From the NCBI GenBank assembly GCA_000435515.1, contig FR884182.1:8123-72122 (forward strand): 64,000 bases of DNA, in the 5' to 3' direction. Under the pieces are notes generated by a model. That model had not been told where the DNA came from. It ran no database searches and saw only the letters and a program-made list of their open reading frames with translations. Both the position numbers and the translations under genes were made by a program. The DNA comes from Firmicutes bacterium CAG:582 (GTDB lineage Bacteria > Bacillota_I > Bacilli_A > RF39 > UBA660). Of the stretch, positions 23,463 to 28,078 are shown one piece after another (within the stretch, counting starts at the first letter, position 1; each line of letters begins with the position of its first letter).

Positions 23463-24491
23463 TCATTTTAAATTATTATTATATAAAATTATCTCAATCT
23501 TATTCACATAGTTATATGAATTAGAATGGCTTGCATGTCCTAAAAAAGAATTATAACTTAATAAAAACTTTTTATCATAAAATATATTATTATTTTTTAA
23601 ATATATCCATTGTTTAATTGATTTCTTTACTTTCTTTTTAAAACGTTTTCTAAGAAGAATATGTGTTGGATAAATAATGTATCCGCAAAAATCAACACCT
23701 AGTTTATTAGGATAATATCTGCTTTTATGATTAAGCAACAGATTTAAATGGGCACTTACAAAAGTTGAAACTAAGTTGAGCACTTCCTTTGCTTCAGCTT
23801 TGGTTTTTAAAATAAAAATCTGATCATCCATATATCTTGTATAAAATTTTATTTTTAGTTCGTCTTTTACATAATGATCTAATTCATTTAAATAAATATT
23901 GGCAAAGAACTGACTGGTATAATTACCAATTGGAATTCCGACTTCGTTGCCATCGTCAAGAATTTTTTTACTGAATTCAAGTAATTTTTTATCTTTAATT
24001 TTAGATGATAATATTTTTAATAATATTTCTTTATCTATACTATAAAAATACTTTTTTATATCAGTTTTTAAAATATAATAGTTTTCTCCATATAGTTTAG
24101 TTGCATTTCTCAATTGATTTTGAACACATATAACTGATTTATGCGTTCCTCGATTATCTAAACATGCATATGTATCATTGATGAATCGTTTCATGAAATA
24201 AGGCTTTATAAACTCTTCAACATACCATTGATGAACTATACGATCACGGTAAGGCAAAGATTTTATTATTCTTTCTTTTGGTTCATGAATAACAAATTCT
24301 CGATATTCACCAAACTTATAAGTATTATTTTTTATCTCGTCCATTATTCTTATAAGATTGGTTTCTAATTCCATTTCAAATATTATTACTTCTTTTTTAG
24401 TTTTTTTACCTTTAGAAGCACGTATGTGGGCACTTAACATTTTTTCGAAAGTCAATTTAGATAGAAAAACATTTTTTATTGTTTTAGGCAT
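23463..24491 (-). CDS. Diversity-generating retroelement reverse transcriptase
   Basis: GIPIGNYTSQFFANIYLNELD ([LIV]GxxxSQ, DGR-type motif 4), RYMDDQIFI (YxDD), N-terminal AHIRASKGKKTKKEV. Adjacent Avd and a TR/VR pair. Confidence 0.9.
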   Translation of the reverse strand: MPKTIKNVFLSKLTFEKMLSAHIRASKGKKTKKEVIIFEMELETNLIRIMDEIKNNTYKFGEYREFVIHEPKERIIKSLPYRDRIVHQWYVEEFIKPYFMKRFINDTYACLDNRGTHKSVICVQNQLRNATKLYGENYYILKTDIKKYFYSIDKEILLKILSSKIKDKKLLEFSKKILDDGNEVGIPIGNYTSQFFANIYLNELDHYVKDELKIKFYTRYMDDQIFILKTKAEAKEVLNLVSTFVSAHLNLLLNHKSRYYPNKLGVDFCGYIIYPTHILLRKRFKKKVKKSIKQWIYLKNNNIFYDKKFLLSYNSFLGHASHSNSYNYVNKIEIILYNNNLK

Positions 24492-24838
24492 GAATTTATC
24501 CAGCCTCCTAAAGACATACTAACTAAATTTATTTTTCTACTCCATGCTTCATAATTACGAATATTTATATATTTCCTTTTGTATGATAATCTAGCAAATA
24601 CCCTTTGCATTTTTAAATTGATATCAAGTTCATTTAAGTATTTTAATTTTTCCTTTTTATCAAATGACTTATATGCCAGTAAAATATACTTGATACCTTC
24701 GTAGGATGAATTTTTTATTGTTGCAACTATGCCTGATTTAGTTGAATTAGGATATTTCTCAGTGATCATTTCAAGATATATAATAAAATCCATGTATATT
24801 TGATAAATTCGTGTTTCTTCAACACAGCTAGCTTTCAC
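24476..24838 (-). CDS. avd: Avd-like four-helix-bundle accessory protein (23S rRNA-IVS protein family)
   Basis: 120 aa. IYQIYMDFIIYLEMITEKYPNSTKSGIVATIKNSSYEGIKYILLAYK fits the Avd/four-helix-bundle pattern. Overlaps the RT start by 16 nt. Confidence 0.7.
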   Translation of the reverse strand: MKASCVEETRIYQIYMDFIIYLEMITEKYPNSTKSGIVATIKNSSYEGIKYILLAYKSFDKKEKLKYLNELDINLKMQRVFARLSYKRKYINIRNYEAWSRKINLVSMSLGGWINSCLKQ

Positions 24839-25199
24839 TAATGAGCTTCTCCTTTACATCCTTTAATATATTTAATGCCTGCAAGGGCGTTATAGAATCA
24901 ATGTCTAAGTTGACTATTTTTTCTTTAATTGAATCATCAATATTAGTTTTTAAACTATCTATAACTTCGACATCTAAATTATGATTTTTAAAAACACGCA
25001 TATAGTTATCAAGAACATCAGCAGGAAAACCACACTTGTATGATTCGCTTGAGAATTTTACTTTTTTTAATACAACATAATCATTGATAGTATCGCAATC
25101 TTCACCAACAAATATATAAAATTTGCCAGATTTAAAAAGATATAATTTGTTTGCATCTTCTTTTTTTAATTGCAAATACTTTTGATATATCACACTCAA
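24828..25199 (-). CDS. Small MutS-like (MSL-type) DGR accessory ORF
   Basis: Preferred start is TTG at 25199, 8 nt after AAGGAGGTGG. (M)SVIYQKYLQLKKEDANKLYLFKSGKFYIFVGEDCD parallels MutS domain I (tPmmqQYl.iK...pdalLfFRmGDFYElF.eDA). C-terminal ITPLQALNILKDVKEKL resembles the MutS C-terminal motif. Confidence 0.5.
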   Translation of the reverse strand: MSVIYQKYLQLKKEDANKLYLFKSGKFYIFVGEDCDTINDYVVLKKVKFSSESYKCGFPADVLDNYMRVFKNHNLDVEVIDSLKTNIDDSIKEKIVNLDIDSITPLQALNILKDVKEKLISES

Positions 25200-25223
25200 T
25201 ATTACCACCTCCTTTAATGCTAT

Positions 25224-25247
25224 TAAAAAAGTGGAAACGATCCACTT
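25224..25247 (-). terminator. Hairpin + U-run between TR and the accessory genes (possible 3' end or attenuator of the TR RNA)
   Basis: Minus strand reads AAGTGGA-TCGTT-TCCACTT followed by TTTTAA, immediately upstream of the MSL RBS. Confidence 0.35.
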
Positions 25248-27192: not shown

Positions 27193-27204
27193 AACACCAC
27201 TCCT

Positions 27205-28005
27205 CTAAACTAACATCGAATTAATTTCATCTATTGCACATTGAACTGTTTCACAAGTTGATTTTGATTTTGTACTATCATATTTAGTATATCTAGCATG
27301 TAAAATAGACCAATCTGCATAGAAAATTTCATCTTCATTATCTTCTATCTTTGTTTTTTCATTAATGTTTTCTTTATTCTTATTAAACCAACCAAGAAAA
27401 ATTGAATTTCCTCTAACTGTAGTTGGTAAACCTTCATAAGTAGTATTTCCATCATATATTGTATAAGGTTTATCAATACTAGCCCCAATCGAAGAATAGA
27501 AAACAGCTTTGTTTTTCTTAACCATTGTATCGCGTGATACATTTTCGTATGTTAATCTACATAAAATTGTCTTTTCAGTTGTATCACTTTTGCTTATTGT
27601 CATCTCTCCAGAATTGATTTGTTGAGCACTAATTAGAGAATCAAAATTATTAGTGATATTTAATGTCGTATTATCACTTGCTGAACAACTTAACTTAGCG
27701 GATTCATCATACTCTGTTGCATTATTTCTAATATAATAATTGATTTTTAATGTTGAACCACTCATAGTAAATGTGAAACTTGATAAATCATTTGATAAAT
27801 AATCAAAATGATTTTTAGAATCTATAAATACATTTCCAATGTAACAGTCTAAATCACTTAAGTTAACAGCTAATAAAGCCACTCCATTTGTAGATAACTT
27901 ACTGCTAACCTTTGCATAACCTATTGTCATAAGAACTAGACAACATATTAGTATGCTATGTTTAGATAAATGATAATTTTTTAATTTATTTGCAACTTTT
28001 TTCAC
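27205..28005 (-). CDS. Signal-anchored surface protein with Flg_new-type repeat, co-operonic with the DGR target
   Basis: GTG start with AGAGGT RBS. Hydrophobic HSILICCLVLMTIGYAKVSS. GNSIFLGWFNKNKENI...IFYADWS. Only 12 nt from the target gene. Confidence 0.55.
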   Translation of the reverse strand: MKKVANKLKNYHLSKHSILICCLVLMTIGYAKVSSKLSTNGVALLAVNLSDLDCYIGNVFIDSKNHFDYLSNDLSSFTFTMSGSTLKINYYIRNNATEYDESAKLSCSASDNTTLNITNNFDSLISAQQINSGEMTISKSDTTEKTILCRLTYENVSRDTMVKKNKAVFYSSIGASIDKPYTIYDGNTTYEGLPTTVRGNSIFLGWFNKNKENINEKTKIEDNEDEIFYADWSILHARYTKYDSTKSKSTCETVQCAIDEINSMLV

Positions 28006-28049
28006 ATCTTTTACCTCTAATTATCTATACTTTCTTTATTCTTAATTTA

Positions 28050-28078
28050 ACTATAGCACAAATATTTCTTGCAGTAAA
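28050..28078 (-). promoter_or_regulatory. Promoter of the DGR target operon
   Basis: Minus strand reads TTTACT (28073-28078), 17 nt, TGC-TATAGT (extended -10, 28050-28058). Confidence 0.45.

Follow-up and report, generated by a model that had tools for sequence, protein, structure and literature searches.

Computational evidence for an intact, recently active MSL-type diversity-generating retroelement with a conserved template RNA on the chromosome of an uncultured gut Firmicutes bacterium

A co-oriented set of genes occupies 23463-28078 on the minus strand of a 64,000-nt stretch of DNA from the uncultured human-gut Firmicutes bacterium CAG:582 (contig FR884182.1), hereafter called the window, whose coordinates are used throughout; all cassette parts lie on the minus strand unless stated. 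Read along that strand, the list of open reading frames (ORFs) and repeats runs from an upstream ORF through a target gene that ends in a variable repeat (VR), a template repeat (TR), and the gene msl for a small MutS-like protein (MSL) to avd and the gene for a reverse transcriptase (RT) (Table 1). A first-pass annotation, made from the sequence alone, had described a diversity-generating retroelement (DGR) with all its parts on one strand, and every DGR part was indeed found on the minus strand. Based on the repeats, the strain comparison, and the protein and RNA evidence described below, we regard it as very probable that the locus is an intact, recently active chromosomal DGR of the MSL type ("Architecture D").

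The TR and VR form a 150-nt direct repeat that is 91% identical and breaks off sharply at both ends. All 14 mismatches between the copies show an adenine in the downstream copy on the minus strand (14/14), which identifies that copy as the TR and the upstream copy as the VR. Thirty of the 35 TR adenines sit in codon positions 1 and 2, and the final 24 nt of both repeats are identical, adenine-free, and partly GC-rich. No further TR- or VR-like copy is present in the 64-kb window.

We compared the window with seven strain loci, obtained one by one through exact protein look-ups; the eight sequences are 95-97% identical over the cassette and carry six distinct VR haplotypes. At the 35 VR sites that face TR adenines, of which 22 are variable, nucleotide diversity reaches 0.356, vs. 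0.023 at the other VR sites and 0.040 in the remainder of the target gene; in the RT gene it is 0.014. The variation is therefore concentrated at TR-adenine positions; an even spread across the gene, which the first-pass annotation had named as an outcome that would speak against a DGR, is not what is observed. The TR adenines themselves do not vary (0/35), and the few non-adenine polymorphisms of the VR agree with substitutions in the same strain's own TR; because the VR tracks each strain's TR in this way, TR-to-VR transfer appears to be continuing. At the protein level, across 15 members of the target cluster, the columns with at least four alleles all fall in codons with TR adenines, except for codon 430 (four alleles), which is an adenine position in the TRs of other strains. 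Clustering at 90% identity groups 541 distinct sequences with the target vs. 190 with the RT. A metagenome scan with an adenine-masked VR/TR pattern returned one locus only.

These data bear on the possibility that the locus is a decayed or domesticated remnant whose VR differences are fossils of former activity. This could be argued from the between-strain, not within-sample, nature of the evidence, from the failure to identify a promoter for the TR RNA, and from an aberrant 374-aa RT call in one related strain (L085); however, none of the ORFs is disrupted, and the RT shows 100% identity to the sequence that represents its cluster of 190 proteins. Strains that are 3-5% diverged carry the six VR haplotypes, which differ almost only at TR-adenine sites while the TR adenines stay invariant, and the non-adenine sites of the VR keep pace with TR substitutions strain by strain, which needs continuing TR-to-VR transfer. 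We thus consider a remnant very unlikely and continue to read the cassette as a recently active DGR.

An equally improbable alternative is that the DGR is carried by a phage or mobile element, in which it would switch receptor-binding tropism within a prophage or island, and not by a cell that diversifies its own surface. Many relatives of DGR RTs are phage-encoded, the neighbors include defense-like genes (a PDC-S37-like helicase-nuclease, E 1.5e-65, and an AlbA_2 remnant), and a tRNA-His gene lies ~10 kb from the DGR neighborhood. Conversely, the window is chromosomal in its gene content, with a gyrase/topoisomerase IV subunit A gene, holA, an RNase HII-family gene, tRNA-His, an ABC transporter, and a two-component system, and no integrase, transposase, or phage structural gene was found among the flanking ORFs examined (~6-44 kb of the window). 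Neither the target nor its neighbors match a PHROG family, the flanking genes are unchanged in all strains examined and in a sister species (~92% DNA identity), the GC content of the cassette is not clearly different from that of its flanks, and the N-terminus of the target is signal-peptide-like. The region from ~14.4 to 29.4 kb holds, besides the DGR, several accessory-looking genes (the PDC-S37-like helicase-nuclease, a radical SAM protein, a small kinase-like ATPase, and an AlbA_2/HATPase_c_4 gene remnant), and the first-pass annotation had accordingly placed the cassette in an accessory island. The lack of integrase, transposase, and phage genes among the ORFs scanned nearby and the shared location of the element in all strains and the sister species examined did not bear this out; the label is plausible but not shown.

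The RT carries both motifs that had been called from the sequence, IGNYTSQ, of the form [LIV]GxxxSQ (residues 188-194; 23910-23930), and YMDD (residues 220-223; 23823-23834). Its best match in the PDB is 8ub7_A, a 328-aa reverse transcriptase aligned over the full length (E 2.5e-50, 174.7 bits), whereas group II- and retron-type RTs in the PDB reach at most 55 bits. We take 8ub7 to be the Bordetella enzyme bRT, on the basis of its length, its name, and the parallel tblastn match to brt of Bordetella phage BPP-1, to which the window RT is 33.6% identical over 97% of its length. The RT also matches PHROG 1423 (E 6e-103). On the question raised by the first-pass annotation of whether the RT might group with retron, group II intron, or Abi enzymes, these comparisons place it on the side of the DGR RTs, and from its sequence it is classified here as a DGR-clade reverse transcriptase. 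A retron, group II intron, Abi, or DRT-type defense RT beside a duplicated gene end, which might be proposed because the best NCBIfam match is a group II intron RT model (98 bits, far under the cut-off of 300) and because PADLOC RT/DRT models give weak matches, is effectively refuted by the far stronger full-length match to 8ub7 together with that to BPP-1 brt, by the joint presence of the SQ motif, Avd, and 14/14 adenine-only mismatches, by the recurrence of the whole cassette in 80 loci, and by the lack of an intron RNA, retron msr/msd, or other family in Rfam.

The two small ORFs that had been called MutS-like and Avd-like both pass the respective Pfam cut-offs (Table 1). Avd is basic (isoelectric point, pI, 9.6) and matches the PHROG family "Avd protein of DGR" (E 5.9e-19); a search of PDB sequences with Avd alone found nothing. 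Avd occurs in about 74% of DGRs and is not strictly defining. For msl, the MutS-like identity held, whereas the 154-aa extent from 25292 given in the first-pass annotation did not. The most likely start, judged from the sequence, is TTG at 25199, which yields 123 aa: a strong ribosome-binding site (RBS; AAAGGAGGTGG) precedes it, gene callers give 123 aa in five loci of other strains and 147 aa in one, and homologues align starting at residue 1 of the 123-aa form. The stretch covered by the over-long ORF call belongs to the structured RNA described below. MSL is acidic (pI 5.4) and represents a family of at least 296 clusters at 50% identity, mostly 115-140 aa long; of the MutS Phe-X-Glu motif, the Phe is retained (GKFYIF), and Ile occupies the Glu position across the family. 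No ORF of the cassette matches HRDC in Pfam. Since msl and avd overlap by 11 nt and avd and the RT gene by 16 nt, the three genes form one operon. Deletion of host mutS in Bacteroides has been reported to raise DGR mutagenesis 5-10-fold; our working guess is that MSL binds the heavily mismatched duplex of cDNA and VR, so that host mismatch repair reverses it to a lesser extent.

A conserved RNA of ~470 nt (25225-25694, minus strand), with helices backed by covariation, contains the TR. At its 5' end, the handle helix is paired at 7/7 positions in 19 loci; five compensatory forms occur (e.g., TCTTAAT/ATTAAGA and TATAATT/AATTATA), and a sixth form pairs at 6/7. The segments TGGCAT...TATAAAT were also considered as a -35/-10 promoter pair and rejected, as their spacing ranges from 12 to ~50 nt and they form the covarying helix. 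A 12-bp duplex brackets the TR, with its 3' arm (25336-25324) inside the spacer that follows. In this duplex, 97.9% of the alignment cells are paired vs. 34-58% in slid controls, and 8/12 pairs show compensatory changes; for four of the five measures, 0/500 shuffles attain the observed value, and for the other, further pair types, 8/500 do.

The 239 nt from the TR to the msl start are non-coding and highly conserved. Within the spacer, helix P1 joins 25437-25430 to 25344-25337, P2 is a hairpin at 25322-25310, and P3 is a hairpin at 25295-25249; the spacer ends in a terminator-like hairpin and T run (25247-25225) just before the msl RBS. In a 25-locus alignment analyzed with RNAalifold, the 34 spacer pairs in six helices are 88.3% paired vs. 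41-46% in slid controls, and 134 cells show double changes vs. 20-36 in slid controls; 0/500 shuffles attain these values. No Rfam family matches the TR-flanking RNA, including intron RNAs and retron msr/msd. In the DGR RNA of BPP-1, stem-loops follow the TR and segments on its two sides pair with each other (the "cPRT Stop duplex"); both kinds of element have been predicted for other DGRs too (bioRxiv 10.1101/2023.10.23.563531). The RNA described here matches these elements, its TR-bracketing duplex resembling the "cPRT Stop duplex."

Between the VR and the TR, the first-pass annotation had noted a hairpin. A hairpin does exist; there are, however, two after the VR, and the candidate for the DGR-type one is that which directly follows it (Table 1). 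Most same-strand relatives have a 6-13-bp stem (mostly 8-13 bp) with a 3-5-nt loop right after the VR, in unrelated sequences. A conserved position with unrelated sequence is the behavior expected of a DGR target-site hairpin, and a hairpin just downstream of the VR is reportedly present in BPP-1 as well (PMC3240598); by this analogy, the VR-proximal hairpin is a candidate target-site hairpin/cruciform. In closer relatives, the stems of the second hairpin differ yet stay complementary, and its loop remains C/T-rich at 10-12 nt. Because the T run that follows it in the window is absent in several loci, this second hairpin is not simply a terminator.

The VR makes up the last 50 residues of the target, whose N-terminus has a signal-like helix with an AYA|AD site. 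A first AlphaFold model, built from a shallow alignment of relatives with at least 69% identity, reached a pLDDT of only 39.6, and modeling succeeded only after distant relatives were added through a family profile. In a Foldseek search, the best match of the resulting model is TaqVP (5vf4; E 1.9e-6, probability 1.0), and a profile of 27 diverse target relatives matches 5vf4 as well (E 2e-4). Nine of these 27 relatives, and not the window protein itself, match Pfam FGE-sulfatase; PDB sequence searches with the target alone and with the first, shallow profile gave nothing useful. Together, the signal-like N-terminus, the position of the VR at codons 420-469, and the TaqVP match agree with the earlier call of a secreted C-type-lectin (CLec)/FGE-fold target with a C-terminal VR, and the modeling against CLec folds that had been suggested with it gave TaqVP as its best match. 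We conclude with moderate strength that the target is predicted to adopt an FGE-type C-type-lectin fold with the VR in its C-terminal end.

Several observations weigh against the locus being an intact, recently active DGR with the parts so assigned. The model of the target is of moderate quality (pLDDT 73, pTM 0.78), its template-modeling (TM) score against TaqVP is only 0.34-0.43, and the target's own sequence matches no Pfam family. Avd scores 65.9 bits against NCBIfam DivGenRetAVD, under the cut-off of 80, and in MSL the Phe-X-Glu motif of MutS is without its Glu, the role of MSL being a guess. The identity of the last 24 nt of TR and VR leaves no distinction between initiation-of-mutagenic-homing sequences (IMH/IMH*) to mark the direction of transfer, and the strain comparison, being between strains, would speak for recent rather than current activity. 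Finally, the scan found no convincing promoter for the TR RNA. It gave 37 consensus matches vs. 34.6 expected from shuffles and is uninformative in such AT-rich DNA; the promoter that the first-pass annotation had placed at 28078-28050 is a consensus match of this kind, no commoner than in shuffles, and is unproven.

Table 1. Features of the DGR locus, in coordinates of the 64,000-nt window
Feature	Position	Strand	Remarks
DGR reverse transcriptase gene, 342 aa	23463..24491	-	Pfam RVT_1; IGNYTSQ and YMDD
avd, 120 aa	24476..24838	-	Pfam bAvd, 56.6 bits (cut-off 40)
msl, 123 aa	24828..25199	-	MutS domain I only; Pfam MutS_I, 38.7 bits (cut-off 20.6); most likely start
Structured spacer RNA	25225..25438	-	Directly 3' of TR; invariant ACTA, TCTACGGA loop motif
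Template repeat (TR)	25439..25588	-	35 adenines, 10 AAY codons; adenines invariant among strains
5' arm of TR-bracketing duplex (AGGTTATAAGTT)	25623..25634	-	12 bp; pairs with AAATTTATAACCT (25336-25324)
5' handle of DGR RNA	25636..25694	-	TGG-CATTTAT (25694-25685) pairs with ATAAATG (25642-25636) around a variable insert
GC-rich hairpin	25703..25737	-	12-bp stem; pyrimidine-rich 11-nt loop (CTTCTTTTTTA); T run follows in the window; terminator-like
VR-proximal hairpin, TGTAAAAAAA-CTTG-TTTTTTTACA	25759..25782	-	10-bp stem, 4-nt loop; begins 3 nt past VR
Variable repeat (VR)	25786..25935	-	Codons 420-469 of target, in frame; ends at last sense codon
DGR target gene	25783..27192	-	469 aa; identical to CDB28679.1, Firmicutes bacterium CAG:582
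Upstream ORF, 266 aa	27205..28005	-	N-terminal signal/anchor; ends 12 nt before target gene
Xre-type HTH_3 regulator gene	28134..28415	+	Pfam HTH_3, E 3.5e-13; divergent to cassette

Starting from what the computation establishes directly (the parts themselves, the adenine-only TR/VR differences, the hypervariation at TR-adenine sites, the tracking of each strain's own TR by its VR, and the RNA structure), we propose that the element works as follows. A non-coding RNA of ~470 nt, comprising the 5' handle, the 150-nt TR, and the structured spacer ending in a terminator, would be made and bound by the RT and Avd, both encoded with MSL in the overlapping msl-avd-RT operon downstream. The RT would copy the TR into cDNA, misincorporating opposite the 35 template adenines, and the cDNA would then replace the VR, that is, the last 50 codons of the target, with the VR-adjacent hairpin and the 3' homology, which is free of adenines and partly GC-rich, as its guides. 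In this way, as many as 24 codons of the presumed ligand-binding surface could be re-randomized (~10^21 DNA variants), with the scaffold and the TR left unchanged. Cis-priming from the spacer, assembly of Avd, RT, and RNA, and integration of the cDNA are proposed by analogy with the BPP-1 paradigm.

A scan of one genome per species returned 80 related loci, all from uncultured gut Bacilli or Clostridia (81 with the window). An avd gene is present in 80/81 of these loci and msl in 77/81, and the order msl-avd-RT recurs in 77/81. The order target/VR-TR-msl-avd-RT is shared by 27 related loci, in which 86-100% of the TR/VR mismatches fall at TR adenines; in a second layout, seen in eight loci, the TR, VR, and target lie on the opposite strand, downstream of msl-avd-RT. 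In 7/8 of these opposite-layout loci, a search with an nhmmer profile built from the spacer locates a copy next to the TR and on the same strand as the TR, which indicates that the TR and spacer move as one module. The first-pass annotation had called the gene order unusual: the TR does precede both accessory genes, unlike in BPP-1, yet this is standard in the lineage. Wu et al. 2018 (PMC5758913) name MSL as a DGR accessory gene (16/372 DGRs) and define an "Architecture D" for such elements, whose named sub-orders may include the gene order seen here. Because 27 related loci share the order and Architecture D is already published, the order is the norm for a known MSL subtype; it is a minority arrangement among DGRs, lineage-typical and not novel.

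Two relatives carry tandem arrays of DGR-RNA cassettes, L037 (CANQZD010000005.1, a metagenome-assembled genome of rabbit-gut Bacilli; 300-4540) and L005 (CANRGA010000003.1; 4290-6130). In both, the unit consists of the 5' handle, the TR, and the spacer, and the array lies upstream of a single msl-avd-RT. The L037 array has at least 11 units with a period of 346-389 nt and 72-85% mutual identity and runs off the contig end, and that of L005 has four; the TRs within arrays differ at non-adenine positions. The VR of L005 has at least five non-adenine mismatches to any single TR and none if its 5' two-thirds are assigned to TR4 and its 3' third to TR1. Several spacer matches were also obtained in L059, L051, L022, L032, and L025. 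DGRs with 2-6 TRs appear in the literature; in the literature searched, we found no description of such arrays. It is conceivable, and we offer this as a speculation that we ourselves rate as rather unlikely, that in this lineage the template is a self-contained, portable non-coding RNA gene (handle, TR, spacer, and terminator), separate from the msl-avd-RT operon both physically and in transcription and able to be multiplied; that the system would then use adenine mutagenesis together with a choice among a library of templates (cassette switching); that MSL would act as a mismatch-binding shield against host MutS; and that the window would represent the single-template form.

A separate observation concerns the 347 nt between the VR and TR. 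In P0250, a 498-aa member of the target cluster from a Logan assembly, the target reads on into post-TR sequence (…KIYKIILHINKDKK…), so these 347 nt are missing in that assembly; either the repeat collapsed during assembly, or the VR and TR really recombined.

Compared with the BPP-1 DGR (mtd-avd-TR-brt), the element in the window shares an RT of the same clade (33.6% identity), Avd, adenine-specific TR-to-VR transfer into a C-terminal CLec fold, a hairpin just past the VR, and structured RNA on both sides of the TR that includes a bracketing duplex. It differs in that the TR and spacer precede the accessory genes and have their own terminator-like hairpin, that an msl gene is added, and that no IMH/IMH* sequence difference is visible; it is also chromosomal in gut Bacillota rather than phage-borne, and its target is a secreted cellular protein rather than a tail fiber. 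The published MSL-containing DGRs (Architecture D, PMC5758913; Bacteroides Bfr/Bth/Bun, bioRxiv 10.1101/2024.11.15.621889) likewise combine a small stand-alone MutS-domain-I protein without HRDC with avd and an RT. The published size range of 112-283 aa includes the 123-aa window MSL, and the published mean pI is 7.2, unlike the 5.4 found here. The Bacteroides elements differ further in diversifying type V pilus tip adhesins, in contrast to the signal-peptide protein of the window (relatives of which are sometimes type IV pilin-like). Finally, TaqVP, a DGR variable protein of Thermus aquaticus (PDB 5VF4), and other FGE-type CLec variable proteins, such as Treponema TvpA, are the best structural and profile match to the target, with the C-terminal ...RGG...GFR motif region bearing the VR; unlike them, at 15-16% identity and a TM of 0.34-0.43 to TaqVP, the window protein differs in its N-terminal half and by itself matches no Pfam family.

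As a type of system, the element offers little novelty: gut Bacillota are rich in DGRs, and a description of the MSL subtype dates from 2018. The value of the locus lies in its being a clean natural example: the cassette is intact, comparison of strains provides evidence of activity, and the helices of its DGR RNA show covariation across dozens of species. This RNA could guide mechanistic work on non-Bordetella DGRs. Of most interest are the covariation-supported RNA and the arrays in relatives, which hold from 4 to at least 11 distinct TR cassettes; in one relative, the VR is a clean composite of two TRs. The lineage thus offers a handle both on the role of the MutS-like accessory protein, given that host MutS suppresses retrohoming 5-10-fold in Bacteroides, and on whether DGRs can use several templates.

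Among the 27 diverse homologues of the target, seven start with a prokaryotic N-terminal methylation motif of the type IV pilin-like kind (e.g., P0270, P0277, P0286, P0298, and P0310 in alignment A2), and therefore DGR-diversified CLec domains may sit on pilin-like proteins. The window target, unlike these relatives, has an ordinary signal-peptide-like N-terminus.

The ORF upstream of the target had been labeled a Flg_new surface protein, a label that needs correction: its single Flg_new-like repeat is below threshold in Pfam (18.2 bits, cut-off 27). The ORF is present in all strains, and its homologues lie directly upstream of the target in eight related loci. Its C-terminal motif (Y..Y.N...C.TVQCA[IL]DE[IL]; Y.KYD.T.SK.TCETVQCAIDEI) resembles the N-terminal region of the target (VYYDNSSSLLKSKNVQDALDELY, 27040-27110), and a domain of the upstream type is fused to the target in two relatives (L040 and L031). 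The upstream protein and the target may share a module or work together.

On the other side of the upstream ORF, the divergent HTH_3 gene is called as 93 aa in other strains and keeps the same position in all of them; it is a conserved neighbor and a possible regulator of the cassette. Farther out, 15727-20094 (minus strand) encodes a 1455-aa SF1 helicase with a C-terminal REase_MTES_1575/DUF559 nuclease domain, whose top PADLOC match is the candidate defense protein PDC-S37 (E 1.5e-65). Next to this gene come an uncharacterized 205-aa ORF, a radical SAM protein with a weak viperin-like match, and a small kinase-like P-loop protein. The 121-aa ORF at 29045-29410 (minus strand) is a C-terminal remnant (HATPase_c_4) that looks truncated in this genome: of the five other strain loci that reach this far, four encode the full-length counterpart, a 412-aa SLFN_AlbA_2 + HATPase_c_4 protein, and in the remaining one (L087) the gene is split. 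The region of the genome around the DGR is rich in surface proteins, among them a 1921-aa protein with Flg_new (Listeria-Bacteroides) repeats (38622-44387, minus strand; E 8.7e-31) and a second surface-type protein at 14493-15593 with a zinc ribbon and a weak Flg_new match.

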